Below are positions 17,917 to 53,426 of a stretch of 64,000 bases of DNA, in pieces. A program made the position numbers and the translations under genes. The notes beneath the pieces were generated by a model that did not search any database, was not told the origin of the DNA, and worked only from the letters and a program-made list of their open reading frames with translations. Positions within the stretch are counted from its first letter, which is position 1; each line of letters starts with the position of its first letter. The stretch comes from Phyllosticta citribraziliensis (Eukaryota), in assembly GCF_038025025.1 (NCBI RefSeq), contig NW_027117340.1, forward strand, positions 248,001-312,000, in the 5' to 3' direction.

Positions 17917-20900
17917 CTAGTACTGCGTGTCGTACTGGCCCTTGATCTTGGCATACAACTCCGTATCCAAAAAGTTGTAATGCGGGTCGCTGAAGCAAAA
18001 GGGCGCGCGAAGCAACGTATCGGCAGTCGGGCGGTCCGCAGGGTCGATGGTGAAGCAGTCGCACATGAAGCTAATGGCTGCCGGGCTGATGTTTTGGCTG
18101 ACGTCGTCGGGAATGGGCGGCGCCTGGTTGAGCGAGCCCAGCTTGTAGATGGCGCCAATGGCTTCTTCCTTACTCCAGGGCCGACGGCCTGCAAACATTT
18201 CCAGCACCACGCAGCCCAGCGACCATATGTCGACCTTGGCGCTGTAGCCCTGGCCTTGCGAGCGAATCACTTCGGGCGCCATCCAGAAGACCGAGCCCTG
18301 CATGCTGTTGCTCGAGTCGTTGCCGTAAATGTTGTCCGTCTTCTTGGATATGCCAAAGTCGGAGATTTTGCACGTGCCGTCCAAGTCGAGCAGGATGTTG
18401 TCTGCCTTGAGATCGCGATGGAGGATGCCTTCGCGGTGCAGATAGGCGAGTCCTGAGAGGGTTTGACGTGTCAAAGACGAGACGACCGGTTCCTCGAATT
18501 TGCCGTGCTTGCGAAGGCACGAGCCGATGCTGCCACCGGGAATATACTCGAGGAAGATGGAAATGGAAAATTCTTTGCGCTCGCATCCGAGATACTGGAC
18601 GATGTTGGGGTGGTCCAAGTGCTGCATCGTGTCGATTTCAATGTCCAGGGCTTTCACTAGCTCTTTGATCTTGTCCTTCTCTTGACCTGCAATGTGAGGC
18701 TTGACTTCGACTTGCTTGACCGCTATCAGTTCACCAGTCGTCATGTTCATACCGAGGTAGACGCGTCCAAACGTTCCCTTTCCGATGAGTTGACCCTTCA
18801 TCCATTTGAACGTGGGCTGGCGCTGTGGGTGCTGTGCCGGAAGGGTGTCTTGAGGGATTGTGTCGAGAATCATGTGGCTGCCGCGATGGGGCTTGACTTG
18901 CTCAATCCTGGCACCAAACATCTTTGTGCTCTTCCTCCTCACAATATTGCCACCCTGTGCTGACTTGAGCGTGTTCATCCGCGGAGGCAATGACTTCTTC
19001 TCCATCGGTTGATACTGCGATTTGACGGTTTCACGGATGGACCGCGTGCGGCCAAGACCGCCCGACTTTCTCATGTTACGCGCAGCCACGGACTGAGCAA
19101 CAGACAACACAGTGTTGTCCCGCTTGAGCGATGTTTGGTCGTTTCGCGGAGCAAATTCGTCGTTTGGCGGCGGTGCAGAATGGTTGATTCCATCGCCTTG
19201 TCCTCCCACCATTCCATTCTTCTCTTCTGATGTCGGCGACGGGATGGCGTCCTCATCCATAATAGGCTGGTCGAGGTTCACGTTGGGGAAGAATTCGTCG
19301 AGGTGTTCCACGAGAGCCTCTGGGGGAGGACGATTCGCCCAAACATCACTTGCAAAAGACTCTCGCCTGACTGGGACACCCGGGATGCCGTCATCTGGTG
19401 AGTCCATCGACCATGAACCCGACGCCGCAGAAGCAGGGATGAATTGTCGAGGAAGGTCTGGATTGCGCTCTGGCGAGCTAAAGCGCACGCCTTGAGCCTT
19501 TTGCGCCCGTGATGGGGTTTCCTTGTCCACGGGCCTCGGAGTCCTTGTTGGTTCGGGGGTCTCGAGGTCCTCCACAGGTTTGCTCCGAGGAGGCGTCTTG
19601 CTCGCGAGCGGCATTGCGAAAAGCCCATCATCAGAGTCGTCATCAGTTTCTCCCGCGGATTCAAGTGAAAGCGGGCGAGCAAAAACGACGGGGTTCTCCT
19701 TAAAGTCCAGGTTGGGTCCGGTAGAGCGCGTGGACATTCCGCGGGTGAGGTCGGTGCCGGATTGGTGGCTAGGATGGGCCGAGTTGGGGCTGACGTCGTC
19801 TGGATGGAATCCCGAGTCATTCTGCTGTATCTTTTCAAAATACCGGTTCGAGGGTGCTCCGTAGTACGGGTCCGATGTGGCCGGGCGTTGTTCGAGGGCT
19901 TGAAAATAGTCAGGAATCAGGAACGGAACCTTGCCTTTGCTCATGGTGTATTCACCAGGAGTTCGGGGGGACCCACCTGGGCTGCCATGGTGCATAGCAG
20001 ACTCCGCAAAGTCCACGGAAGCCATGGTTTTGAGCGGCCTGGTTCCTCCGGGCGTCAGGACTGGAGGGGCGGGAGGCGTTCGGTTTGGTGCCCGCGTTGG
20101 AGCACCAACCAGACCACCGAGTTTGCCAGCGCCTAGAAGAGCATAACCAATACCTGACAATGCACCCGAAGGAGTGTCTGGGATGGCGGATCGGGGCTTT
20201 GGTTTGTCGCTTTCGGGCGTCTTCTTCCCAGAATTCGGCTCCTCGGTATCAAACGAGTCCCGCGTCTTACCCTCACGCTTGCTGAGCGAATTGGCTTTCA
20301 GTAATGTTTCGGTCTCAACCTTGGGGGCAGGAGGGGGCTCGCGTAGGGGCACCAGAGGCAGCTGCTTGTGTTTGCTGTCAAAAGGTTTCTTGCCATCTTC
20401 ATAGGGCGAATCTCGTCGTTGGTCAAAGTCAATGATGCCGTCACGCTTATATCCAACAGCTGTGGGGTCAATCGGGGAGTGGCCCGGGGGCCTGTTGGGA
20501 TGTCTCCTGTTGAGATATTCTTCTTGTTTGCGTTTCATCTCCAGCCGATGCTTTTCGTGAGCTGCCTCGAGCATTTCCCTGCTCTGCTCTGGTGAGATTT
20601 CAGGACCGACAGCATCCCATCGAGGTTCCATTGGACGTTCGCGGTGGGCCGGGGGTTCAACGGGCGTGTCTTCCTTCTTTCCGACGTGGGCCATGGGTTG
20701 GCCTTGGCTAGGGACGAGGGTGGATTCACCAGACTTTGGCCCAGGAGAATCCAGTGCGTTCCCAGCTGCTTTGAGCCTCTCCATGGTAGCGGGATCGATG
20801 GCTTTGCCGGTGAATGACATGCGGTATGGCGAGTTGCTGTGCTGTACTCCTAGTCCCACGTGAGCGGAAGCGGGCGGCGGTTCCTGGACGTTGACGAAAA

Positions 20901-22929
20901 TCTTCACTGTTCCCGATACATCAGTCAGCCGGCGCGCCTGCATGAGCAAGCTGTCAGTCAGCGCCTCGTCATGTTCAGTTTGGCCTGGAGAGGTGAGGTG
21001 GAGCGAAATGTCGGACGTGGGGAGCTGAAGGTTCCAGCATATCAAGTCCCGCAACTTCTGGGCCGTGTCAATTCCAGTAACGTCTACCAGACGGTAGTTC
21101 CAGCCGTCGGGCGTGACAAAGAAGAACCTCCTGGGCTCCGAATCTCGAGTGACAGCACGTGGGCGCATGGGTGGTGGGGCTGCTTCAATATCAGCTTGGG
21201 CGGATCGTCTTGACGGTGGTCGGTCGTTGAGCGAGGTGTCACTCGAATTCATACTGGACTTCATAAAGGGTGCAGTTGGCGGTAGGTGGCGGACGCCGGC
21301 AGGGCTCGTAGGAGACTCGATGGAGGATTCGTCGGGGGAAATGTGGTCGTCACCCCTCCGTTTGCTGCGAAACTGCTTTCCAATTCTGTCAAGAAACTTC
21401 TTGTGGTCTTTGACGGACTTTTCGGGGTCCTGACTGTAGGCGCGACTGTCCGGCCGGGCCCCCTCCAGCCCGTGGCGGCGGTCTGATGATTTGCCTGAGG
21501 GCGGACCTGACGGTGGATTTGAGCCATAGGAGGCAATGTTGGAGAGATTCGACTCGGAAGAATTGGCGCGGTTGTGCAGATAATAACGGGACGACGCGGA
21601 TGAGGACAGGACAGGCCTTGCGGCGCCCAGGGCAGGGCTGTGCTGAGGACTTTCTGAGCGCTGGGCGCCGTAGTCCGCAGAGGGGTTTGGAGAGTGTCTC
21701 TTGTTGGAGGACCCGTCCCCACCGCCGACCTGTCGCAAGACCTGTTCGGTGAAGGGGCTGCGGTTAGAGGCCCCGGACACGTGATCGGGGTGACTTAGGG
21801 GTGGTGCAGTGAAATTGCGCTGGGCGGCCTGGGCCGAGAAACGTCGCGGGTTGCTCGTCGCAGGCGAGTTGAGCTGAAGCTGTCCGTGCTTGCCAGGGCT
21901 GTCACTATCCCCACCGGCCGTCGTGGGCGTCGATCCGACGGCACCGTACAGATCCTGGTGGCCTAGATTCGGCGAATTCTCCATGGTCCCGTCGGTGCCG
22001 GCGCTCGAGCTGTTGCCAAACGTTCGCGACGTCCGTCGGTGCGGCAGCTTTGCGCTCGTCGGATTTCCGCCATTTTCCACGATGCTGCGCACGAGCCGTC
22101 GCAGTCGTTTGCCCTCATCTCGCTCACGCGTCAAGTCCCAGCCCGTTCCGCTCTCCTCGCACACCTCTCTCAATTGCGGGTATATCTTTGAATGCAGCAT
22201 GGCGACGTTGCCACCGGGCCCGTGTCCCCTCCCGAGATCCAGAAACTGAGCACCGTAAAGATTGAGCTGCTTGAACGTCTCTTGCCAGTCGCCCGAGAAT
22301 CCGTTTCCGGCCAGCCAAATGAGCACCCTGTCCAGCGGCCACTGCAATGCCGGATCCGAAGGAGATAGCGGGGCTTCCGTGGGAATTTCGTGTGGGGTGT
22401 GGTCGTGGTGTCGCAGGTTCTGATACGTCGGGTGGCTGGGTTCTTCGGGGGGCGTGGGCATGGAAGTAGTTCCTCTGGAGCTGGTCTCGTTGGACGAAAT
22501 GTCTTGGGGATACGGGTAGTAATAACTCTGCTCACTAGGAGTGTGCAGGGGCGGAATGCCAACGCCCGGGCCAAATGATCCGCCAGAGGGGGTGTAGGTT
22601 GCCGAAGTCAGGGGCCCATTTTCTCCCGGCACCGACATCATATTCAGCTGTTGCTGTTGCTGGTGGTAGGCTTGGTAGGCATTTGGATTGTAGGTGGGCA
22701 GCGGGCCGTTTGTTTGCGACGAAGGGTAGTTGCGATTCCAATACGTCGTCGGTGGTGCGCCAGGCGGCGGGCCCGGCAGAGGCACGCCCATGTGGGATTG
22801 GGAAGTGGGCTGGCGAGGCGGAGGAGGAGGGAATGGCATGCCATGAGCCGAAGCGCCGGTGGGCTGGGGCGGCGGAGGCGGAAGATTGTACGGTTGCCTC
22901 GAGGGATTGTGCATTTTTGCGCGGGACAA
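17917..22929 (-). CDS. BCK1: MAP kinase kinase kinase of the cell-wall-integrity pathway
   Basis: C-terminal kinase with GQLIGKGTFG, AVKQV, HRDLKADN, DFG and MQGSVFWMAPE. Bck1-type LVEHLDEFFP and RRKSTKMFG motifs. N-terminal SAM-like WPLDRVLIWL. Single 1670-aa ORF. Confidence 0.95.
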   Translation of the reverse strand: MSRAKMHNPSRQPYNLPPPPPQPTGASAHGMPFPPPPPRQPTSQSHMGVPLPGPPPGAPPTTYWNRNYPSSQTNGPLPTYNPNAYQAYHQQQQQLNMMSVPGENGPLTSATYTPSGGSFGPGVGIPPLHTPSEQSYYYPYPQDISSNETSSRGTTSMPTPPEEPSHPTYQNLRHHDHTPHEIPTEAPLSPSDPALQWPLDRVLIWLAGNGFSGDWQETFKQLNLYGAQFLDLGRGHGPGGNVAMLHSKIYPQLREVCEESGTGWDLTRERDEGKRLRRLVRSIVENGGNPTSAKLPHRRTSRTFGNSSSAGTDGTMENSPNLGHQDLYGAVGSTPTTAGGDSDSPGKHGQLQLNSPATSNPRRFSAQAAQRNFTAPPLSHPDHVSGASNRSPFTEQVLRQVGGGDGSSNKRHSPNPSADYGAQRSESPQHSPALGAARPVLSSSASSRYYLHNRANSSESNLSNIASYGSNPPSGPPSGKSSDRRHGLEGARPDSRAYSQDPEKSVKDHKKFLDRIGKQFRSKRRGDDHISPDESSIESPTSPAGVRHLPPTAPFMKSSMNSSDTSLNDRPPSRRSAQADIEAAPPPMRPRAVTRDSEPRRFFFVTPDGWNYRLVDVTGIDTAQKLRDLICWNLQLPTSDISLHLTSPGQTEHDEALTDSLLMQARRLTDVSGTVKIFVNVQEPPPASAHVGLGVQHSNSPYRMSFTGKAIDPATMERLKAAGNALDSPGPKSGESTLVPSQGQPMAHVGKKEDTPVEPPAHRERPMEPRWDAVGPEISPEQSREMLEAAHEKHRLEMKRKQEEYLNRRHPNRPPGHSPIDPTAVGYKRDGIIDFDQRRDSPYEDGKKPFDSKHKQLPLVPLREPPPAPKVETETLLKANSLSKREGKTRDSFDTEEPNSGKKTPESDKPKPRSAIPDTPSGALSGIGYALLGAGKLGGLVGAPTRAPNRTPPAPPVLTPGGTRPLKTMASVDFAESAMHHGSPGGSPRTPGEYTMSKGKVPFLIPDYFQALEQRPATSDPYYGAPSNRYFEKIQQNDSGFHPDDVSPNSAHPSHQSGTDLTRGMSTRSTGPNLDFKENPVVFARPLSLESAGETDDDSDDGLFAMPLASKTPPRSKPVEDLETPEPTRTPRPVDKETPSRAQKAQGVRFSSPERNPDLPRQFIPASAASGSWSMDSPDDGIPGVPVRRESFASDVWANRPPPEALVEHLDEFFPNVNLDQPIMDEDAIPSPTSEEKNGMVGGQGDGINHSAPPPNDEFAPRNDQTSLKRDNTVLSVAQSVAARNMRKSGGLGRTRSIRETVKSQYQPMEKKSLPPRMNTLKSAQGGNIVRRKSTKMFGARIEQVKPHRGSHMILDTIPQDTLPAQHPQRQPTFKWMKGQLIGKGTFGRVYLGMNMTTGELIAVKQVEVKPHIAGQEKDKIKELVKALDIEIDTMQHLDHPNIVQYLGCERKEFSISIFLEYIPGGSIGSCLRKHGKFEEPVVSSLTRQTLSGLAYLHREGILHRDLKADNILLDLDGTCKISDFGISKKTDNIYGNDSSNSMQGSVFWMAPEVIRSQGQGYSAKVDIWSLGCVVLEMFAGRRPWSKEEAIGAIYKLGSLNQAPPIPDDVSQNISPAAISFMCDCFTIDPADRPTADTLLRAPFCFSDPHYNFLDTELYAKIKGQYDTQY

Positions 22930-23712
22930 GAATCAGACGGATTTTGAAATGTCAAAAAGGATGGCAACAGCCGGCTGTCGTGCGATGGCTGCAGTGGTCT
23001 GGTGGCGATGGCGTACTGATGAGGGAGCGCAGACGGGCAGACTTGACGGGCTCAGGCAGACGTTGGTCGACGTCGCGCAGCGTTCATGAGCCGGTCATGA
23101 GAAGGGCTCCTGGAGGGGAGCAGAGCTGTATCGGGCGTTTGAGCACGCAGCATCGAGGACTGAAGGGAGCGCAACACGTCGGCCAAAGCGCCGTGATCCC
23201 GATGGGCAAGTGACAGAGAGAACCAGGTTGATTGTCGTCTCAGCGCATAAGGCGGGACGGCGGGGAGAGAGCGGGAGCGGGCGTGGCGATGGCAGGGCCG
23301 TGAGCTGCCTGAGAAGTGAGGTGGAGAGAGTGGAGCGACGGGAGTGGGAGCGAGGAGAGAATCTGGAGGTGATGGTTTGCGAGATGTTGGGTCCACCGAG
23401 TGTGGGCGCAGTCCAGTCGGGGGTTCCGCTGCAAGCTACGGGCTGATACGAGCCGACGGGAACAACCAAGTCGAGACGTGGCAGCCCGTGACAAAGCCAA
23501 TCACCACCAAACACCTCGCAGCAGCCTTTGACGGCCGCCCTGACCGTTGTGCTCGCAGCGTGGGAGGGCTTGGTCTTCGCCCTCGAAGCCCAGCCAGCCT
23601 GGACGCCTCTTTCTTACATCACCTCGACTCGACCTTGGACCGTCAACTCCACCACTCGACAACACCACGCCCGCCCCCTCCACCCCCATGGTCTCTCCCA
23701 CCTTTTTTCGCA

Positions 23713-25850
23713 ATGGCTGACGCGACTCCTGGCGACGCGCAGCACTCCCCTGACTCTGCGTCTCCGTCGCCCACAACGCAAGGTGACGCCGAACACAACG
23801 CCCCCAAAGACCAAGACCAAGACCAAGACGACGCGCCCTCCAGAGAGGGCACCCCGCCTCCGCTGCCTCCCCGCCCAAAGCGACTCCCTGTCCAGCCCTC
23901 GTTCGAGTCGTTCCGCCTGGGTTCCGCCTCATCCAGGGCCCCCTTGCAATCCCGCGCCACTACCGCCTTGTCTCTGCCCGACGTGCAAACTTACAACGAG
24001 CCCACCAGAGATGCCTCGGGGCCCTCCCCCACGCGCCAGTTCAGCATCGCCGGATCAACAAAGCCAGCGGCAGGAGGAAGCGATGGCGGCGACACGGCCA
24101 GCCTGCGCAGCTACGCGCCGACCCTCGAGGCGGGCGCCGAGGTCGAGAGCATACTAGGCGAGATGATGGCCGAGCAGGAGACTGTGGCGTGGAAAGCTAT
24201 GGCTCACCCGGCCGCCGGCAGCGACGCCCATGCCCTATTCCCGGAAGACCCGGCGCTCAGGGTGGCCTTTGGCCGCGAGTTTGACGACATGGACGACTTC
24301 AAGGCCGACGCGTCGAATGAAGGTCAGGCCGTCCGGCTCTTCCAGCTCGCCATGACGCTTGCTGATGTATCTTGTATCTGTAGAAGCGCTAGTCATGCAA
24401 TGGAGATCCAAATTGAAGCATTACCTGATTCTATCCTCGGCCGGCAAGCCCATCTACAGCCGCCATGGTGACGACCAGCTGATTGCCAACTCAATCGGCG
24501 TCGTACAGACGATTATATCCTTCTACCAAGATGCAGACGACACGCTCAAAGGATTCACTGCCGGCGGTGTCCGCTTCGTCGTCTTGTCCAAAGGCCCCCT
24601 GAACCTCGTGGCCGTTACAAAGCTCCCCGAGAGCGACGGCCAGCTGCGCACGCAGCTCGAATCACTTTACATGCAGATTCTTTCAACCCTCACCTTGCCC
24701 CAGATGGAACGCATGTTCCGGGCCCGAGCCTCGACTGACCTCCGCCGCCCTCTCCAGGGTACCGAGACCCTTCTGTCCGCCCTGGCAGATGGCTTTACGC
24801 GCGGGTCGCCCTCGACTCTGCTCTCTGCCCTGGAATGCCTGCGTCTGCGCAAGTCTCAGCGAAAGCTCATAGACAACACATTCCTCAAAACCCGAGCATC
24901 CAGCCTGCTATACGGTCTCATTGTGGCAGGCGGGCGATTGGTCAGCGTAATCCGGCCGAAAAAGCACAGCTTGCACCCAGGAGACCTGCAGCTCATTTTC
25001 AACATGCTCTTCGAGGCAGGCAGCGTCAAGGCAGCGGGCGGCGAGAATTGGATCCCGCTCTGCCTGCCCGGCTTCAACAACACAGGCTATCTGTACATGT
25101 ATGTCAGCTTCCTCAGCGTGAGCAGCGGCGGGACGGACCAAGAGGAAGAGCGGCCCAGCACGGCGGGCGGCGAGGACAATGAAATCGCCATCATCCTCAT
25201 CAGCGCAGACAAAGAGGGCTTCTTCGAGCTGCGCGAGATGAAGGACCAGCTGGTCAAGGTACTTTCCTCCCATCCCTGCGTGTCAAAAGCGCCACGCCCG
25301 GCTCTGACATGATTTCCAGCAACTCAGCGCCAACGGCTGCCTGACGACGATGCGCGACGCCGTCCGCCGCGGCCGGCCTCTCTGCACAGACATCGTCCCC
25401 GGCACGCCGCTCCGCCATTTCCTGTACAAGTCGCGCTCGCACGTGCAATTCACCATGCCGTCGTACAGTCCCACATTCGACTCAGCGCTAGACCGACGCC
25501 TGTAAGCCATCCACCCATCCCTCCAAACACCAACAAGAGCACAAAGAGAGTGCACATCAAAGACGCAGCCATTGACCATCGCCCGAAACAGCCTCATCAA
25601 TCTCTACACCCCGCTGCACGCAACGCTGCACACCCGGCCCTCGTCGTCGGCTGCTGCCGCTGCCAAAATTATCCACTCGTCTACGACCCATGCCACCGCT
25701 ATTGCGTGGAGCACCCCGCGCTTCGAGCTGTACGGCGTCGCGCCTGGCGCCACGAGTCGCGCTGCGCTGGCGCAGGCTGTCGGCCGCGTCGTCCAGTGGG
25801 TCCGACGTGAAGAGGAAAGGGTGTTTATCGTTGGTGGTGGTGTATTTTAG
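23713..25850 (+). CDS. MON1: Vacuolar fusion protein Mon1; introns 24323-24383, 25259-25319, 25502-25591
   Basis: [37 protein letters not shown] and terminal FIVGGGVF. Three GT-AG introns restore the frame. Confidence 0.93.
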
Positions 25851-26451
25851 GAAACTTCATGTGTTTGTGTTGTTGACGAGGTAGGAACGTAGCTGCGAGC
25901 TGGCAGTGAAGGGCTGGCGTTGTTTTGTGTAGGGTGTCTTGCCTTGTGGCTACATGGGTCTTGTGCGCGCCTATTGCATCGCATTGTGCGAGCATTGCGT
26001 CCTTGTGGTCATAAATAGAATTAACGAAGGTAGCATCGTGCCAGCGCTGGCTTCAGGAGTGAATGGCTTCTGAGATGCATATTCAGGGACGAAGGTACTA
26101 GTTGAAGCTCTATCAGGACTGGTCAGGTAGTACATGTTGGCAACTTAAGCAGATGGATAGTGAAGGCGATGGTGGCGATGATGGCGACGACACTAAGCCT
26201 AATATGCAGGTGGAAGATAATACCGCCAACCAGCGTGATTGTGTCATAGTCAACGTCAAAGAGCAAAGAGCACGAGGAGCGTTCGTCACGACAAATTGCG
26301 TTGGAACCGACAGAAAGAGGACATTGCGGCGACCAACAGGCGTGGAAAACACCACGAGCATGCGAAATACAAAAAGAAAGATATCATTGAAGAACGACGT
26401 CCATCACCACCACCAGCACCACCAGGCAAACTCAACACCAAAAGAAAGAGC

Positions 26452-26737
26452 AAAAAATCAGCGCCGAAGCACCTGCAAAGCCCCCGCGAGCAGCGACTTT
26501 CCCCGCCCGCTTTGGCGCGACGTGGTCGGACAGCGACACCGTAATTGGCGTCAGTCCGCGGAATGCCGCGAGTCCGATTCGAACTCGAGCCCCGCCGCTT
26601 TCCGGATCCAGCCCAAGCCGTTGGCACAGCGTTAGTCAGGCCTTTTCACGATTCGTAAGAATCGAGGGGTTGATGGTTCGACTACGCCAGTGTGCCGACT
26701 TGGGTGGGTGTCCGGATGCTGAGATGGACGTCGCGGT
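26452..26737 (-). ncRNA. Candidate structured non-coding RNA of unknown family (putative Pol III transcript)
   Basis: Many nested complementary helices, a cUUCGg hairpin followed by T6, B-box GTTCGAATC and A-box-like TGGCGTAGTCG. See findings. Confidence 0.55.
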
Positions 26738-28468
26738 TTGGGGTTTTATGTGGGGAGGGCGGGTGTGGTGATTGTGTCGGCGTCGGCGTCGTCGTCGTCG
26801 GCGGCGGCGGCTCCTGCTGCTGCGTCGCCGCCATCAAGGCTCTGTGGTGTTGCAGGCCTCGCCCTCACGCCATTCACCTCACCTCGTCGACATGTCTTTG
26901 GTGTCGCAGCCAACATCCACGGCTGTTGCCTTCTAGGTGTTTCTTTTGCGTCGTCCTGCCCAGACGAACATGTTTTTGATGTTGCAACCCACACTCTCTC
27001 CGCGCAACAGTCCACCCACACATGTCGCCTGCTCCTTGCTCATGAAGGTGCAGCTTCACTCGCCCTCTTCCTCTTGCGGTTGGACGTTTGTTCCCAGCTC
27101 TTGAAAAAATAGACTTGGAATCAAAGCAATTAAACGTAGGGAGCAGAAGGACAAGATTGAGTTCGTGGGCTGTTGCACATAGTCACAGACCTTTGAAAGA
27201 AGCAGCACGCGCGAAAAGATCACTGAAGAGGTTCGGAGAATAAAACAAGCGCCAACGTCGATCTTTCTGGGGTCTTCGACCTGCTCCGTCCGCCGGGTCT
27301 ACCTCCAAGCTGCTGCATAACTTGGGCGCCAGATTGTATCATTGGACTTGAAAAGGTAACTCACAAGACGAGTCTTCTTTAAGGTAGAGATGGCAGTCGG
27401 GCTGCAAGGAGAGGAAGTAGTCGTTGACGCCTGAAAAGTCGGGCGGGGATGATCTTTGATCCGCTCGCTAGTCGTCGACCACCCTTGCTCTGATCGACGC
27501 TGTCTCTTTTGACCTCACCTTCTCTTTGCCCAGCCTTTGAGTGACGCAGTGGTAAGAATCCTGCTTTGAATCACGTTGTGTATGCGTTGCCTGAGGTTTT
27601 CAAGCCTGTTCGAGCCATCATCCTTATCGAAAAATGAGAAGTTCGAGCGTTCACGAATTACGCTTCACTTTTTAGTGGGACTTCTGCTTGAATCGCATAT
27701 CGCTTCAATGTCTTTCGTATATTTACCTTTCAAGCCCCATGGCTTGGATGTTTCTCCTATGTCTTTGTCGATTTCTTTTCCGGGTTGCTGCGGAGCCACT
27801 CCACAGCCAGCAGGATCTTTTAATCTCTGCTACTAACGGCAGCTTCAATCACTCATCAAAGCATTCCGATAATCTCTTATGAGCCAGCCGCGCTGGATGG
27901 TTTAGCATGTGGTTCTTCCTGGTGTGAAAGTACAGCTTGAGGTGGCCAAAGCTTGCATGTTAACACGAGCAGAAAACGCCCCGAGGTGAAGAGAGGCGCG
28001 ATTCGCAAAGCTTCATGGTCACGAGTGTCAAAAGTGGCTGCGACAGGTGTGATGTGATTGTGCTGGTCTTTTGCGCAAGACGCCCCCAGAATGGACGCGA
28101 TGAGGTTTTCAGGTGAGGAGCCAAAGCCTCAGCCTTTTCCGCTCAATGGCACGTCATGTCAAGGTCGTAGTGGAATCAAGGTGCAAAGAAAGGGCTGTCA
28201 GTTGCAAGGGATTTGGTCGACTTTTTGCGGGCGTTGGAAAAAGAGCAGAGCCGTTGGTCAGGTTCAGTCGCCCTACCGTGGATGAATTTGCCGAATGCTC
28301 CCACCCAGATTCGACCAAGGTAAACACGTCCACGCGCGTATTTTTCCGTGCCTCGGATTCCCATTCACCTTGCCCTCTCCTACGTTTCTTCAACAACACC
28401 CCCCCCCCCCCCCCCCACCAACCCACCAGTTGTCCAACCACCAACTGGCCTCGACTGCATCAGGCGCG

Positions 28469-31400
28469 ATGGACCCTAGAAATTCTTGGCTTGGCCGGCC
28501 CGACGACAAGTGGATGGCAAGACACGGCTTCAGTCTTTCCACTGAGTTCAAAGTCGACGCGCCCGTCGTCCAGAGCTTTGATGACCCCCCGGCCCAGGAT
28601 TCTGGAGATGCCTTGTGGCGCCACTTGGGTTTCCAAGTAGAGCCTTGGTAAGAGTACCCACGCTGACGCCCGCTGTTCTGTCTTCTGACCTTGAACCTCA
28701 AGTACGACACGTCGCGAGAGGGCCATGAGGACCCACCGTTTGACGTACGAGAAGGACCCTAAGGTGGACCGCAATGACACCTTTGATTGCAACCTCACCC
28801 CCAAGCAGCAGCTCGACATGCCGAAAGAGTATAGTTGCCCCAACCTTTCTCGCTTGAAATTTCCATTGACGCGTTGACTTAGGTTTTGGTACAACCGTTG
28901 CCTGCGTTGCGGAATTCCCGAAGCTTGGTTTCCAACCAAAGACCACAACTGGCGAAACTGCAAATACCGTTGCTGGTATTGTCAGAGCATGGCGCACGCC
29001 AATCAGCCCTGTCAAGGTTATTTTCGTCAAATCATCAATGGCGTCCGCCAGGTCATCAGCGAGGAACCTCCCGGCCTTGGCTGGTACGAGCGCAATACCC
29101 GACCGCAGACACCGCCCCGAGCCTCGCCTCCTCCAGCGCTAGCTCTTCCGGAAGAGGTACGTCCAACTGAAGAATAGTCATCTTCACAGACCCAATCACA
29201 CCACTGACACTTGCTAGACTTACTACCCCACCTCAGGCGCTCCCGAGAACAAAAGAGAGCCAGAAGTCATCTCGCTTCTTTCAAGCTCGCCCTCCGCCGA
29301 CGGAAGAGACCAGGAAGAGTTGCGCGAAGTCCCTGCAGATGTGCTGGAATACCCTGCCCAAGAAGAGGAATTTGAAACGAGGGACAATCCCCAGGATCAA
29401 GGTCTGGATGCTCGGCGGTCGTACCATGGCGCTGAACAGCAAGAGTTTAGAGGCATCTATCAGCCTCAGCCGTTCAGCAAGGGCTCGTCTTGGATGTTTC
29501 CCAACTCTCTTGGAGAGGCGGATTCTGAAGACGTCTCGTACTTTCCACCACCTTCCACCCATCACGGTTTCCCAGAAGTGGTGCAATCGGTCGAGTGGGA
29601 CCCTTCGATTGAGTTTGGTGAACACGACCATGGAGCAACGAACGTCGATCATGATGGCTCGGAATCACCTCAATTGGTGCAATCGGTCGAGTGGAATCCT
29701 TCCATGGAGTTTGGCTACCACGACCCTGGAGCTACGAATGTCGACTACGATGGCCCGGAATCGCCTCAGACTGTCATTTGCATTGACAGCGACGAAGATG
29801 AGAATGAGCACGATATCGGAGACGATGTTAGCGAAAACAATGAGAGCGAGGACGATAACAGCGATTCGGATGATTATGGAAGCGAGCGCAACCACAACAG
29901 TCCAGAGGTCATTGATTTGACATCCAGCTCGTCTCCCGCTTCTGAGAACTCGTTCCATGAAGGATACGCTCCGGAGCCACAGTCTCCTCTGCAGCTTGAC
30001 GAAGAAATGGGCTTCGTGATCGATGAGTCTGAAGATCAGGAATCTGATGGCTTTCCTGAAGAAGTGCCATCCATCGAGGTAGACGAGAATGTCTCGCAGT
30101 GTGGCTCCGATGTTTATCCAAGCTCTGACACTATCATGGCCGACGATGGCGACGTGGATGATGCGCACTCTGATCGGTCAAGGCAGTACTCGCGAGGGTT
30201 GGGCTACTTAGCCCGCGACTCTCTCTCGCCCCGGCGACGAGAGCGCTCAGAGCGCCCACCTGAGCCTTCGGACAACGAGTTTTACCATTTGAGCAACCAA
30301 GCTCGCGACTGTCTCTTGGACCAACGCAAGTCTGACCCAGACGCTTCGCCAACTTCCGACAACCAATCGAATCACTCGGACCCCGTAGTCCGCACCCACC
30401 GTTCGCCTTTGCCAGAGTATTTCGAGGGCACGCCTCTGGCTTCGCAGGACAATTCATGCCATTTGGGCCTCATGGCCCGCAATTCCCTTTCGCCTCTGCG
30501 GAAGGACTTCCAGCGTTCGTTTCAGGGTTTTTACCACGGGCTACACCAGTCGCAACCCTCGGGTCGTGGATACTATGCGCCTCTCAGTGATACCCTTGAG
30601 CGCCCGTCTATTGCTCTGGACGACAGCGGATTCAACAACGAAGCCGATCTGCCATCACAGCATGAAGTCGCTGGGACACCCTATCAAGCTAGCGAATTTC
30701 TGCATCCTCAGCTTGAAAGGAGCCCCCGGTTCGCTTTGAGCTCTGATCAAGACCTTTCCTACATCACGGCCGTCGAATACATCAATCACCCGACTGAGCC
30801 CCAGTCAGATCCTCATGAACCGACTCTGGAGTTCTCCGAAGAGCTTCATACTGCATTGTCGCACTTCTTTAGCAGCCCTTCCTCGCAGAACATCCCTGAA
30901 GCGTCTGCCGTGCAGCGCGACGAGTACACGGTCTGGCCACACCAACCTCAAGATAATCACTGGGAGGCGTATTCAACGCCTTCAACGCTTCGTAATTCCA
31001 ACTCGATGACCCTTGCTGAAGAGGACTATCAAACTGTGGAGTGGGATTCGGCAGCGCAAGACAATTCGTCAAATGGCTCTTCCCTCCTTCAGCAGGATCT
31101 TGAGGCGGGGCTCCAGAATTCTTTCTCTCAGGACGACGATGACTCAAATTCGGCACCTCGCTACCAGGGAGATTTTCGATATGCGCCTACGACAGACTTG
31201 GGCGCTCCCAACACTTCTTCCACTTCGCTCGATCATGTTGAAAGCAGCTCTGAACATGGAATGCAGGCAGACGCCGACACAAAAGATGGTCTATTGTACG
31301 ACGTCGACACGATGGAGGCACAGCTCCACCATGAGCACCTAGCAGAGGACGACATCTTGCTCAATTGTCCTCCATCATCTCAGACAGTGGTTGGAGATGA

Positions 31401-39339: not shown

Positions 39340-39764
39340 GGCGGTCACGGGCTGGAGGTGTACAGATAGCACGCGGCGTAATCGGCATGATAGACAAGGC
39401 ATGGCTGTACGGGGTGCTAAATGAGATGATTTTGAACGAACTTGTCAGTCCGAGACAGAGATGGCATAACAATGTATCCGAAGAGATTCAGTGATGAGAT
39501 CAACCACCTTTCTTCACGCTCCGCTGTGTTTGGCATCGAGCTGTCCGGAACGCTTAGGCCTCGACTTGCGGCTGACTAATCGCCAAATCAAAGGTCAACA
39601 GCCCACGACGCAAACCCTCTGCTGCATCAAACCATCGCTCAAACAATCGATGCCGCCCTCAAAAGCCTGCGCAAGATTCCTAGACTGCCATAAAGCTGAA
39701 GAGGGGCCAAATTCCCTTCGGCACCGCAAGACAATTAGTATATATTTTACAAAAGCGAGTTGAA

Positions 39765-39872
39765 ATTGTTGGCGTGGTAGGCCGTAAAGAACTCATTTCT
39801 TGCCTTTTACCAGAAGTGACCGTGTGGCCGCCACAACACGCCATTTACAATTCTTTGGAAATCTCAATGAGG
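39765..39872 (+). ncRNA. U5: U5 spliceosomal snRNA
   Basis: Invariant loop 1 GCCTTTTAC (39802-39810) closed by TCATTTCT/AGAAGTGA, followed by CCG. Outer stems GGCC/GGCC and TGGCGTG/CACGCCA. Sm-like AATTCTTTGG (39849-39858), a short 3' hairpin, and TATATA about 25 nt upstream. Ends are approximate. Confidence 0.88.
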
Positions 39873-40379
39873 CAACTCGACCTGCGCAAGGTCGAGTCCC
39901 GTTTTGCGCGGCGTTTTCTTTTTGCGTTTTTGCGACGCTAGCCGAGCGGCTGGCTGGCTGGCTGGCTGGGTTTTGCGTGCTTGTTTCCTCTTGCTGTCTG
40001 GTCGACTGCTGCTTTTGAGTGCTGCGTTCGCCACGCTGTGCACAAGATTGCTGAAGAAGAAGCAGCGTGCGGTTGTCCTTTCTACGCGGCTGTGGTGCCG
40101 GCCGACGGGAGATATGATTTCTTTCGAGGCCCGTCACCTCGCAGTCTGGCGAAGCGTTGCCGGGACACGCAGTATTGATCCCACGTATTACTAACGACGG
40201 CGCAAAAGACGGGGCGTGGGGAAAATGTTGATGCGTACGACAGAAAGCGAAAGAAGAAGACAAATGTACCCAAACAACCACTCGCAAAACCACAAAACCA
40301 CAGCATCTCTCCTTCGTCCACCACATTATCAACCTGTCTAGACATCTCCTCCAGCCAATTCTACATTTTCCTCTCCGCC

Positions 40380-43759: not shown

Positions 43760-46700
43760 AGACCCAGACCCAGAACCTCCTGCGGCGCGGCACGGCCGTC
43801 ATGGCATGGCGTCATTTTCTGCGCCGCAACCAAGACCATATCCACCTCTGCTGCACCCTCAACGCTGTCGCATGACTCCCTACTTCAGCCCTCGATCTCC
43901 TGCCTCAGCGCGCCTCTCACCGCCCGTGACTGTGACGAGGTTGTTGCCTGACGCCTGACGGCCGTTTGACCCGCATTCACCTGCATCTTGGACATCCGCC
44001 CCCATCAACCCACACGTCGACACCTCCGCTGCTACACGCCGACGCGCGCTAGCATTCCAAACCATGTCACTCGTCGAAACAGAAGCTGAGGGAAACTAGT
44101 TGTCTGCCCTGCGACATGACAGGCGCCGAGGTTTGCGCAACAAGCTGAGCTAAGCGCCGCGTCTACGACCGTACCCCCATCCGGCTACTAACTACACCTT
44201 GGCCGCTCCGCCGTTTGCCCCCGGCTGTGTACGCGTCCACACATGACGGGACCGTCCCGTCTCGTCTATCCCGCGCTGCCCGCACATGCCAACCACACCC
44301 AACAGACGGTCGTTTTTTCTTCTGGAGCCAAGTCGGCCATTGCTCCGTAGCAGCAGCAACACGACAGCAGCGCCAGCATGCTCAAATATCGCCAAGCCCA
44401 GGGCCAGCCGTCCATCCCGGCGAACCCCGGCCCGTCTTAGCCGGCCGGGGGGAACCACCTCTCACAAACTCAGATCTGCTCAGGTCGCGAGTTATCAGCT
44501 CGTCCGTCAGCAGTGGAACGGCTGCCAGACCAACCACTGCTCATCATCATCCACACAGTCAGCACTCTGTTTAGACGCCGATGCCATTGTCGACCAAATG
44601 GGTCAAGAGACCAGCCAGCCGACCAGCCAGCCAGTCAACTAGCCAGTCAACTAGCCAGCCAACCTGTGGTAAGCCAAGCAAGGTCGTAATGTGATGAGAG
44701 CAGAATGAGGGGCACGCGGACGCTGTCGTCCCTTCTCGTTCTCTTTCCTTTGCGTCCATTCTATTAATACACTCCGTCTTCTACATGAAGTCCATTCGTC
44801 TTTTTCTTGGCCCCCACACTGAAAATCCGCTTCCCCATCATTGACGAGCAAAGCCAAGCAAAGCTCAACAACAAAGTGACGCAGACGAGGGGCACGAGCG
44901 GCGAACACGGTGCTGTTCCATCTTTCTCCATGACTTTTCTTTTTCTAATAATACCCTCTTCGGTCTCTTATTCTCCATATGCGCTTGCTCGCGTGTCCGT
45001 TCGAACTTTGGCCCCCACCTGCATCCACCCCGTTCTACCTCACGTCACCTACGCACGTTTGGATTTTGGCCCCCACCGGCAAACTTCGCTTTCCATGCCA
45101 TTGCTGGACGCAGACCACGTCAATACATACGCCCCAGGCGAGAGAGGCGTGCGGGCAATTCGGAACTCGCCTGGGCTGCCCTGGCCCTGGCCTGAGGGGG
45201 CGGATGCGCGTCTATCTGTCTGTATCGTCCGCGGAGGCCCGTTTGCTGGTCTAGCCCCCATCATCACCCATCAATTCTGTTGCCTCCCAATTTTCCTTTT
45301 TTTTTTTTTTTTTTTCTCTCTTCTTCGTCGTCGTTCGCCCCTCGCTCGCTCTCTTCCAAGCCTATTTACATCCAAGCGAAGCGAAGCCAGCCAGCCAACC
45401 TGCCATCTCTGTCGTGGAGTGAGCCAGGTGGAACTATCCGCGCGCATTGTGTGGAGAAACACGGACACACGGACGTGTGGACGGACGGACGAACGGTACA
45501 GACGACGGCGACGACAGGCGCCAAAAAAATTAAAAAATTAAAAAAGCAAAGGTGATGCACGGCCCGCGGCAAACAAAGTCATGGCGGCGGAAGTTACTCC
45601 GTCGTTTGTTCGTCGTGATGGTATGAGTTGCGGCGGATTGAGCGTAGCGTTGGGGCCAGTGGAATGGCGTGGCGTGGTATGGTGTGGGGTTCTTCCGTCA
45701 ATCATGACTGTCGGCTGGGCTGGTGAGTAGTAGAGTAGGTACGTACATACCTGTGTAGACAAGCGGGAGAGAAAGAGAGGCAGAGAAGTTGCAAGGTAGC
45801 GAGGAGAGCGTTTCCAAATACCATCTAGTTCGCAGAAGACAATGGCAACCGTCGTTGATATGCAGGTGGTACATACATGGTAGAAGAAGAAGTAGTAGTA
45901 GACTGGCATAGTCCCTTGTCTATTTTCGCATTTTCTAGCACTCGCACTATACGATGTGGGCAGGCAATGCAAGTACATCTATCTATCTATGCCTAGCTAT
46001 CTGTCTGTCTGTCTGTCTGTCGCCACGCCATCCTATGCTGACTAACTAGCCAACTAACAACCTGAGCATAGCACGCACGCACGCGCCCCAGACAGACAAA
46101 CATCTTTCTATCCATCCATCTGCCATCTGTTATCCGTTGTGTTAAACCAAGCCCAGCTTTATCACGCCATCTTTCTCCCAGCTCGTCATAGAACTCCAAA
46201 AAAAATGGGTGAGCACGTCGGCCGCCTCCTGGATCGGCCTTGCTGCTACCCGATGCACTCGTCGAGCCATCTAACGCGCGCAAAATAGACGGAAGCAAAG
46301 CAAAGCAAACGCGAGGAGAGAGAACGAACGATAGCTAAACGCCTGTGCCTGGAGGTGTGCAGCATGCGAGCGATGAACGCAACGAATGCAACAGGAACCA
46401 GCCATCCCAGCAATGCCAACGATGCCATGCCAGCCCATCGACCGGGGCGGGAGAGGCGCGAATTGTGCGGACTTGACGAAAAGAAAAAGAGAAAAGAGAA
46501 TGTGTGTAGGTAAATGGTAAACGGTGAGTGCAGCGCAAGCGCCGGCATTAAAATATTGGTCTGCTTCTTCTACTGCCTCTTCTACTGCTGCTTCTTCTTC
46601 TTCTCCTTGTTCATTTCCATCTTCTTCTTTCTGACCGCCATCTCCCATCTTTCGGCCGGCCGGCCGGTCTCTGTCTTTCTCTCTCTTTCTGCAATAATCG

Positions 46701-51800: not shown

Positions 51801-53426
51801 CTCCTTCTCCTCTCCGCCGTCTCCACCGCGTCTCTCTCTCTCTCTCCACAAAAAAACACCCAGACCGCTTGCGCTTCCACTTCCCAACCGCCTCCCATTC
51901 GTCTCTTTGCTCTCTTGTTTCCATCCCCTTCGCCCTCGCCTACACGCTCTGTTCTCGATCCCCAAGTCAACATCCCCCTCTTGCTCATCGTCTCCACCAC
52001 CCGCCGCCCGCGCCGCCCGCTCGCTCGGATATCGTCCTCTTTTCTGCTCATGTCGCGCGCACGCGCACGCGCGCGCCGCTCGCTGTCTTTGCCGCGCTAG
52101 CCGCGTACCCGCGCGCGCGCGCCCCCCATCACATCCTCCCATCCATTCGTCCCCAGAATGCTGCTCTGCTGTTCCCTACGCTCTCGCCGCTGCTGCCCTT
52201 GCTAGCCTGCCTGTACACACTGTACCCACGGCCAAGGCACAGCAGGCAGGCAGGCAGCCGAGAGGGGCGCTTGCTTGCTTGCATACACGCGCCGCATTCT
52301 CGTCCGTCCTGCATCCCCGCTACGTGTGTGCATGTGTACACATACGTCTATGCATACACGTATGCATACGCACGTATACACAGGCGTATATGCGCGTATA
52401 CGGCGGCGGCGGCGGCGACCCCACTCGGGACGGGATGCACCACCCACCCACCGCCGCTATGTTGTCGTCTCCGCTCCGCACCGCACAGCGCAGGACGTTG
52501 TTGATTGCCGCCCGCTCGCTTGCCCGCTGGCGTCAGCTTTGCAGAGCCGCATGTCCAGCTGCGGAAAAAGGCAGGTACGGGACGCTGTACCTGCTTTCTG
52601 TGTCACGGGGGTCGATATGCCCTTCAACAGCCTCTCCGCAGATCCTCAGAGCCACTGACCGTGGAAAAGGTATTGAAGCATGGAGACGCGACGCAACAGT
52701 GCAGCCCCGCTGCTTTGCGCCGACGACGCGGAGGTTAGAGAGTGAGGCATCTTGAGTCAAGTGGTGCCCGCGTTAGGCTAGGTTGGCCGGTAGGTATATC
52801 CACTACGTGTATCAGAGAGGTATCGCCAGCAACGTATCTACAGGTAGGTACATGTATTTAAATACCTGTGCCCTTCACCCCACGACTTCGCATCCCTACT
52901 CGGATCAGATCGGTAGACGACAAAGAACGCACGCGCCGCATTGAATCATCCCAATCAGCGCGCCCGATCAAAGCGCTTCGGGATGGAAAGTCTACAATTC
53001 AATCAATCAATCAATCAATACCGACCCCTCCGCCTGCTCGCTCGCCCCTATATATACTGCACCCATCCACTGCAGCCCAACCAGGTGCATATCGTCATCT
53101 CCGTCGTTGTTGAAAAAACGCTCCACCCATCGCATCCCATCCACTTTCGCCGGCCAGCTAGCCAGCCAGCCAGCCAGCCAGCGCGCAACCAAACAAACAA
53201 ACAAAGAAAGGCCAGTGCCGTTGCTGTTTTGCTTTTATACAAGGCCGTTTTGGGGAGTGGGGTATAAAACTCCACCCATTCATTCATTCAGTGTGCAGCA
53301 ATCGCTCCGCCCAAGTTTGTTCAGGGTTGAATCAATCAGTCAATCAGTCAGTCAAGTTGGTAGGTAGTCGGTCTGTCAATTTACACGTGCATTCGTGTGC
53401 TGAGGTCGTCGGCGTTCTCCACGGTA

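Follow-up and report, generated by a model that had tools for sequence, protein, structure and literature searches.

A compact structured element downstream of MON1 in Phyllosticta citribraziliensis: a plausible, unproven small RNA gene of the RNA polymerase III type

Does a strongly folding stretch of intergenic DNA encode an RNA, or is its structure a property of the DNA itself? The question is raised by a candidate element at positions 26452-26737 of a 64,000-nucleotide (nt) stretch of the Phyllosticta citribraziliensis genome (contig NW_027117340.1; this whole stretch is called the window), which an initial annotation had described as an unassigned, highly structured RNA of the minus strand with RNA polymerase III (Pol III) signals. 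The candidate sits in a 2.6-kilobase (kb) gap between MON1 and the next gene on the plus strand. The window is GC-rich fungal DNA; the last exon of multi-exon MON1, a plus-strand gene that ends at 25850, matches the Pfam domain Fuz_longin_3 (E 9.5e-13), and the next plus-strand gene, as read from the sequence, starts near 28466.

The answer tentatively favoured here, at rather less than even confidence, is a single-copy, lineage-restricted small non-coding RNA (ncRNA) gene, an independent minus-strand unit whose layout is of the Pol III type. In broader terms, a small ncRNA gene of the Pol III type is plausible at this locus and unproven. The evidence consists of the fold, an ordered set of promoter-like and terminator-like motifs, an island of local conservation and the non-coding character of the DNA.

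A fold more stable than chance

Significance of folding was expressed as the minimum free energy (MFE) relative to dinucleotide shuffles (z score). On the minus strand, 26452-26740 folds with an MFE of -130.6 kcal/mol (z -4.45), and none of 200 shuffles folds as well; when the 5' strand of the proposed closing helix is omitted (26452-26722), z is -5.09. The plus strand of the candidate reaches z -2.43.

The structural parts drawn in the initial annotation are all present. Of the 45 pairs in its seven long helices, all are complementary on the minus strand, as against 44 on the plus strand, and the hairpins at 26535-52, 26557-70, 26486-26510 and 26460-73 (GGUGC-UUCG-GCGCU), the run of six T (T6) at 26452-57 and both promoter boxes are in place. 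Its argument from G-U pairs for the minus strand depends on the small hairpins, as just one of the 45 pairs in the long helices is G-U. Read from the upstream side of the minus strand, the parts are as follows; B and C denote two related organisms.

26744-26749, minus strand: TATA-like element (AUAAAA), ~25-30 nt upstream of the presumed start near 26720; putative promoter element
26728-35/26516-23, minus strand: 8-base-pair (bp) closing helix, doubtful; its GACGUC is self-complementary and it has a rival partner at 26395-405
26600-26717, both strands: rod, an imperfect hairpin; sole strongly significant structure, pairs verified
26679-26689, minus strand: A-box-like UGGCGUAGUCG, one mismatch to TRGCNNAGTGG
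26575-26585, minus strand: B-box-like AGUUCGAAUCG, two mismatches to GGTTCGANTCC
26526-26577, minus strand: three-way junction, formed by helix 26526-31/26572-77 with hairpins 26557-70 and 26535-52; pairs verified
26486-26510, minus strand: hairpin GCGGGCGG-GGAAAGU-CGCUGCUCGC, pairs verified; a C>U change at 26488 (B and C) stays paired as G-U
26452-26473, minus strand: hairpin GGUGC-UUCG-GCGCU, then GAUUUUUU with T6, a run like a Pol III terminator and also Sm-site-like (AUUUUUUG)

Most of the fold signal stems from the rod, a 118-nt imperfect hairpin with z -5.74 on the minus strand and -5.29 on the plus strand. Its MFE is -58.6 kcal/mol on the plus strand versus -53.1 on the minus strand, which makes plus the stabler strand. 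The rod is thus strand-symmetric: as DNA it is an imperfect inverted repeat, and it carries no information on the strand. The segment of the three-way junction (26524-26599) favours the minus strand (z -2.78 versus -0.58), and the 3' part (26458-26523) has z -0.66 on the minus strand versus -2.03 on the plus strand. In its properties (imperfect pairing, a length within ~70-200 nt, greater stability than shuffles), the rod agrees with a hairpin precursor.

When 1822 sliding segments of 280 nt from both strands of the window are ranked by composition-corrected MFE, the candidate is 10th. Three other top loci, folded in the same way, reach z -4.03, -2.84 and -4.15; all are simple-repeat hairpins, and the candidate is not. 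By this ranking and these other high-z loci, the candidate fold lies in the extreme tail, yet it is the best of many. The fold is real and more than chance.

Pol III-like signals in order

Textbook internal promoters of Pol III consist of an A box (TRGCNNAGTGG) and a B box (GGTTCGANTCC). Sequences resembling both lie on the minus strand of the candidate, and the B-box sequence GUUCGAAUC was confirmed at 26576-84. A box, B box and oligo-T thus follow one another on one strand, as in type-2 Pol III genes, at long spacing.

This combination is rare. An ordered triple was defined, on one strand, as an A box with at most one mismatch, 30-120 nt, a B box with at most two mismatches, 20-250 nt and T6, with spacing limits chosen after the locus had been seen. 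It occurs at this locus alone in the window, and in shuffled controls at 0.025 per dinucleotide-shuffled window (1 in 40); none was found in 584,803 nt of related fungal loci, which are partly redundant. Because the limits were set post hoc, this rarity is moderate support and not proof.

A conserved single-copy island

Five public runs, none of them recorded as RNA, contain the stretch, two from organism A, two from B and one from C, and runs X2 to X5 were compared over 26000-27200. Sampled words are all shared in A, with fractions of 0.14 in B and 0.54 in C, from which divergences of about 6% (B) and 2% (C) are estimated. One contig of run X2 (organism A) spans 26000-27200, and the two other contigs found at 80% likeness or more match only a GCC repeat at 26777-26818. 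The candidate is therefore single-copy in this run. Dispersed copies, which the initial annotation had linked to a mobile element, were found neither in run X2 nor in the 64-kb window, where no paralogue was detected.

Local conservation was assessed from the differences listed for B and C; the comparison has 28 more substitution entries and seven more entries of insertions or deletions, so that all counts are lower bounds, a point against the RNA gene. Organism B aligns from 26417 or 26433 to 27061. It has at least 10 substitutions and two 2-nt insertions (12 events) in 26452-26750 (299 nt), versus at least 23 substitutions and seven entries of insertions or deletions (30 events) in 26751-27061 (311 nt). 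The binomial p value of this contrast is 0.006 on the listed events, and would rise to 0.04-0.13 if 4-8 further substitutions all fell inside the candidate. Organism C shows at least 12 substitutions and two insertions or deletions (14 events) in 26363-26728 (366 nt), versus at least 26 substitutions and gaps, including a 42-nt skip (at least 27 events), in 26699-27003 (305 nt; p 0.009). In both organisms, the candidate is ~2.4-fold better kept than the adjoining upstream DNA.

Moving outward from the island, the nearest listed changes come at 26751 in B and 26753 in C upstream and, past its other edge, at 26447 in B and 26425 in C. The stretch kept best thus extends from the TATA-like element to T6, and this coincidence of the island edges with two putative Pol III signals argues for the RNA gene. 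No change is listed in either organism at 26738-26750 (the region of the TATA-like element), at 26571-26623 (with the B-box-like site) or at 26452-26487 (with T6 and the UUCG hairpin). In the A-box-like site of B, 26688 G>A is still R (purine), and the change at 26680 hits an already mismatching position. The DNA on either side is described by two further features.

26751-27061, both strands: upstream half of a GC-rich alignable block; less conserved, with a variable GCC/GAC repeat and no coding signal
26363-26451, both strands: downstream alignable stretch; present throughout in C, in B to 26417-26433

Beyond the second of these, 26181-26363 is replaced in C by 176 unrelated letters. The trinucleotide repeat just upstream of the candidate (GCC/GAC, 26777-26822) varies in length, with the 42-nt-skip variant in C and several small deletions in B. 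In run X5, two haplotype-like contigs (depths 12.7 and 66.9) split exactly at this repeat.

A non-coding locus outside known RNA families

A coding gene is rejected. None of 10 open reading frames of the gap downstream of MON1, including those that overlap the candidate, has a Pfam match. Codon scores of 26420-27060 are negative in all six frames (-0.12 to -0.55 bits per codon), whereas two control genes read in their correct frames are positive (MON1 +0.23, the upstream kinase gene +0.25). Organism B carries its 2-nt insertions at 26531 and 26624, and its 23 upstream substitutions fall 9/5/9 into the codon-position classes (hand count), with no period-3 pattern.

Searches with Rfam 15 give no match in the candidate at gathering score. 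At E<=10 with permissive filters, nothing relevant appears on 26300-26900, 25850-28150 or 26555-26725 (601, 2301 and 171 nt); the only hits are bacterial and miRNA ones at chance level, outside the candidate. Within the same window, a U5 small nuclear RNA (snRNA) is readily detected on the plus strand at 39768-39874 (RF00020, 60.6 bits, E 1.3e-07). The label of undescribed ncRNA withstood the tests applied here (no Rfam family, no coding signal, a single copy in run X2 with a conserved island in two related organisms, a rare ordered set of Pol III-like signals), while the element is only a candidate RNA.

Three specific identities were tried and dropped. At the tip of the rod, the apical loop has 6 nt and not 7, so that the reading as an anticodon arm was abandoned. 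Telomerase RNA was sought through its template; the telomere repeat is TTAGGG and the template of filamentous ascomycetes holds ~1.5 repeats. No template was found, and no 9-10-mer of (CCCTAA)n within one mismatch occurs on the right strand of 25800-29400. The sole telomere-like match, CTAAGCCTAA, lies at plus-strand position 26193, within the DNA replaced in organism C. As for C/D or H/ACA small nucleolar RNAs, reading of the sequence revealed neither a C box nor suitably placed H and ACA boxes.

A proposed transcription unit

Transcription of the element, the polymerase, the ends of the RNA and its processing are predictions from these sequence features. Pol III would start near 26720, guided by the TATA-like element at 26744-49 and by the internal A-box-like (26679-89) and B-box-like (26575-85) sequences, and would stop at T6 (26452-57). 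The product would be an RNA of ~265-285 nt with an oligo-U end, folded into the 118-nt imperfect hairpin, the small three-way junction and two 3' hairpins. Of these parts, the 118-nt hairpin is the likeliest to be functional, possibly as a precursor of the type that yields microRNA-like RNAs (milRNAs); alternatively, the molecule may serve as a stable ribonucleoprotein (RNP) scaffold.

The distribution of changes along the rod gives a hint in the first direction. The rod carries at least eight changes in B and C taken together; every listed one is in the apical 65 nt (26624-26688), and the basal 53 nt have none listed (post hoc p 0.008). Invariant basal arms with a varying tip are, by analogy, how miRNA-type (Dicer-type) hairpin precursors evolve. 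It is tempting to go further and to propose a new family of ~270-nt Pol III RNAs in a small clade of filamentous ascomycetes. Such a family would have been born by inverted duplication and would combine a wide-spaced, tRNA-type internal promoter with a TATA-like element; its hairpin would feed the milRNA pathway, while the 3' junction and oligo-U tail would make a stable RNP form. Taken as a whole, this scenario is speculative and quite improbable.

Evidence against the RNA gene and alternative explanations

Several observations weigh against the proposed gene, and many of them serve the alternative that survives best: an element without RNA function, in which an imperfect inverted repeat in GC-rich DNA carries chance Pol III boxes and is kept through the closeness of the organisms or as protein-binding or regulatory DNA. 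TFIIIC-bound sites without transcription (ETC-type) are an example of such a protein-binding element. This alternative is somewhat unlikely, with several points in its favour.

The strand-symmetric rod could be a DNA-level inverted repeat. As three to four other loci in the 64 kb reach z of about -4, the element was picked as the best of many. The boxes are singly at chance frequency, with 24 A-box-like sites found versus 26 expected in the window and 65 B-box-like sites versus 69, and the minus strand of the window has 19 runs of six or more T. Their placement is also unusual, as the A box lies ~30 nt from the presumed start and 93 nt from the B box. In tRNA genes, the A box is closer to both. 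Finally, a plus-strand B box with one mismatch (GGTTCGACTAC) at 26675-85 occupies the same DNA as the minus-strand A box; the same palindromic DNA thus reads as A box on one strand and as B box on the other, and the motifs are ambiguous as to strand.

The substitutions do not help to decide for an RNA. Among those listed (B 10, C 4), five keep pairing on the minus strand through G-U (26488, 26570, 26672, 26680 and 26653), and three break pairs in the minimum-energy fold (four in the model of the initial annotation). Positions 26563, 26655 and 26688 are unpaired in both fold models, 26527 only in the minimum-energy one, and the 6-nt insertion of organism C falls in the loop of hairpin 26535-52. 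Within the junction of B, the change at 26570 gives G-U, 26563 is in a loop and 26527 breaks one pair of the initial model. Changes at 26673 and 26628 break rod pairs. The 8-bp closing helix, complementary as initially drawn, does not hold up in the relatives: 26729 G>C, in B and C, breaks both this helix and a perfect 11-bp pairing of 26723-33 with 26395-405, past T6.

No compensatory double change occurs among the listed substitutions, and those within 26452-26722 (B 9, C 3) damage the fold no less than random ones: among 300 random sets with the same kinds of substitutions, the share that spares the fold equally well is 29-30% for B and 51-68% for C. With few changes and counts that are lower bounds, this test lends no support. 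Collectively, the listed changes respect the fold only weakly, with no covariation.

In one contig of run X5, 75 letters stand between 26711-53 and 26258-98 where the window has 412, so that some related locus is without most of the element. The depth of this contig is twice that of the main one; its origin may be a relative in which the site is empty or replaced, or a paralogue that lacks the element.

Deeper homologues were not found either. A 21-nt stretch that includes the B box had no match in a metagenome scan. In 80 metagenomic MON1 loci (69-85% identity to the 245-amino-acid MON1 exon), blastn, nhmmer and tblastx detected no similarity to the candidate or to 25851-29300. The search for syntenic orthologues next to MON1, proposed in the initial annotation, thus found none in this set. 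At least 1 kb downstream of MON1 is available in 54 of the 80 loci; among the loci compared, long conserved downstream stretches match each other and not the window, so that local synteny looks lost. Rfam gave no hits on 14 of the 80 loci, and ARAGORN, on all 80, no tRNA. Without deeper similarity and with unlike neighbourhoods, the locus is either young or in a rearranged neighbourhood.

Four observations run counter to a mere DNA element: the edges of the divergence island at the TATA-like element and T6, the rarity of the ordered triple, the simple-repeat nature of the other high-z loci, which the candidate does not share, and the preference of the three-way junction for one strand.

Two further points tell against the proposed gene as drawn. 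T6 lies 145 nt past the hairpin, unlike the milR loci of Neurospora crassa, where it follows directly. Moreover, the GC-rich alignable block extends to ~27061, which suggests a larger unit. The corresponding alternative is that the candidate is the 3' part, the best kept and most structured, of a longer transcript made by RNA polymerase II over the GC block at ~26420-27075, either a long ncRNA or an snRNA-like molecule with AUUUUUUG as internal Sm-like site in place of a terminator. We judge it unlikely, on evidence that cuts both ways.

The alignable block covers 26417/26433-27061 in B and 26363-27003 plus 27067-27120 in C, and its GC content is 59-64% across 26400-27000 versus 45-52% in the flanks. 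The upstream half folds moderately (z -2.86, minus strand), and the minus strand has TATTTTTT at ~27104-27111, a short way upstream of the block. Conservation in C runs ~90 nt beyond T6, and the 11-bp pairing of 26723-33 also reaches beyond it. Against this, that pairing is hit by 26729 (B and C) and 26397 (C), the upstream half is ~2.4 times more diverged with a length-variable simple repeat, and no Rfam family appears at E<=10 over 25850-28150. Sm-class snRNAs have an AUUUUUG-like Sm site between stem-loops and a 5' sequence specific to each family; here, AUUUUUUG has a hairpin before it, no convincing 3' stem-loop after it and no match to U1, U2, U4 or U5.

A known essential RNA too diverged for Rfam is very unlikely. 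The RNAs considered were signal recognition particle (SRP) RNA, RNase P or MRP RNA, an snRNA, U3 and telomerase RNA. There are two loose resemblances: GGGGAAAGUC, which is presumably CR-I-like, and CCGGAAAGCGG, which we take to resemble the tip of SRP helix 8. The permissive Rfam searches on the three segments are blank, whereas U5 is easily detected in the same window. In addition, GGAAAGU lies in a hairpin loop near the 3' end and not after P3, no AGCA-type SRP54 motif was seen, a telomere template within one mismatch is missing from the right strand, and such RNAs would be expected to show deeper conservation than the candidate appears to have.

Least of all is to be said for a tRNA-derived short interspersed element (SINE) or a decayed tRNA gene, an extremely improbable origin. 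It was suggested initially as a SINE-like element and draws on the A-box-like and B-box-like motifs of the minus strand and the one-mismatch B box of the plus strand; the SINE is rejected by the single copy in run X2 with no paralogue in the window, by the apical loop of 6 nt in place of a 7-nt anticodon loop, by the Rfam tRNA model (nothing at E<=10 on 171 nt) and by ARAGORN, which at default thresholds finds no tRNA gene in the window and at 75-90% makes 32-163 calls, three of which, intron-containing, overlap the region and count as background (26693-26832; 26313-27017, with a 622-nt intron; 26544-26692).

Significance

To our knowledge, filamentous fungi have yielded few Pol III genes other than those of tRNAs. 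The milRNA loci of N. crassa are evolutionarily young, and lineage-specific Pol III genes such as these are the main source of insight into the origin of small-RNA genes there. If transcribed as proposed, the element downstream of MON1 would be a clear case of a recently arisen Pol III gene, single-copy and with an origin that can be dated: three close organisms have it, one related contig lacks it or has it replaced, and it was not found beside MON1 in more distant relatives. If it is not transcribed, it is a caution that z near -5 together with textbook A and B boxes can come from an inverted repeat in GC-rich intergenic DNA.

Other features of the window

The stablest 280-nt segments of the scan lie at 52151-52500 on both strands (z -4.03), where GCAGGCAGG, CGTATGCATAC and GGC repeats occur; by its look, the locus is hairpin DNA made of simple repeats and not an RNA gene. 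At 44381-44660 (minus strand), tandem repeats of the GGCTGGCTAGTTGACT type form a perfect 24-bp hairpin (z -4.15). The U5 gene has a strong TATATATTTTA box ~20-28 nt upstream (39740-39750).

Head to head with MON1, a 1671-codon open frame occupies 17917-22932 on the minus strand; its translation begins with a long N-terminal part of low complexity and has a protein-kinase domain (HRDLKADNILLD ... DFG) at the C-terminal end. Two MON1 exons are ~356 nt apart in the window and ~730-1100 nt apart in metagenomic loci L002, L005-L010, L013-L015, L022 and L023. The wider gap in these loci points to a much larger MON1 intron or an insert.

Comparison with known systems

Four known systems resemble the candidate in part. 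Like tRNA-derived SINEs, it has A-box-like and B-box-like motifs and a length of a few hundred nt; it differs from them in being single-copy in run X2, in having no tRNA-like fold and in ending with a T run instead of an A-rich or repeat tail.

The yeast genes SCR1, RPR1 and SNR52 combine an upstream TATA-like element, internal A and B boxes and a T-run terminator with a product of a few hundred nt. The candidate has a similar layout, in its TATA-like element, A-box-like and B-box-like motifs, T run and predicted length. It is without sequence or structure match to the SRP or RNase P RNAs, unlike SCR1 and RPR1, and has no C box downstream of its B box, unlike SNR52, though CUGA precedes T6.

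Closer in setting are Afu-182, Afu-202 and Afu-309 of Aspergillus fumigatus, which are described as unassigned intergenic RNAs of 220-340 nt conserved within the genus (Jöchl et al. 2008, PMC2377427). They share with the candidate an intergenic position in a filamentous ascomycete and a length of a few hundred nt. They were cloned as cDNA and seen on Northern blots, whereas the candidate is known from DNA sequence alone.

The closest parallel is provided by the milR genes of N. crassa. In milR-1 to milR-4, a T cluster is found downstream of the milRNA sequence in all four; at milR-1, it follows that sequence directly, TATA-like elements are present, and A and B boxes are absent (Yang et al. 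2013, PMC3547838). According to the same study, which used the Pol III inhibitor ML-60218, Pol III makes the major milRNAs. The candidate differs in its A-box-like and B-box-like motifs and in its T6, which lies 145 nt past the hairpin, after a three-way junction and two hairpins. Both are intergenic elements of filamentous ascomycetes with a stem-loop precursor, or what may be one, a T run and a TATA-like element, with Pol III as the polymerase there and as the proposed polymerase here.

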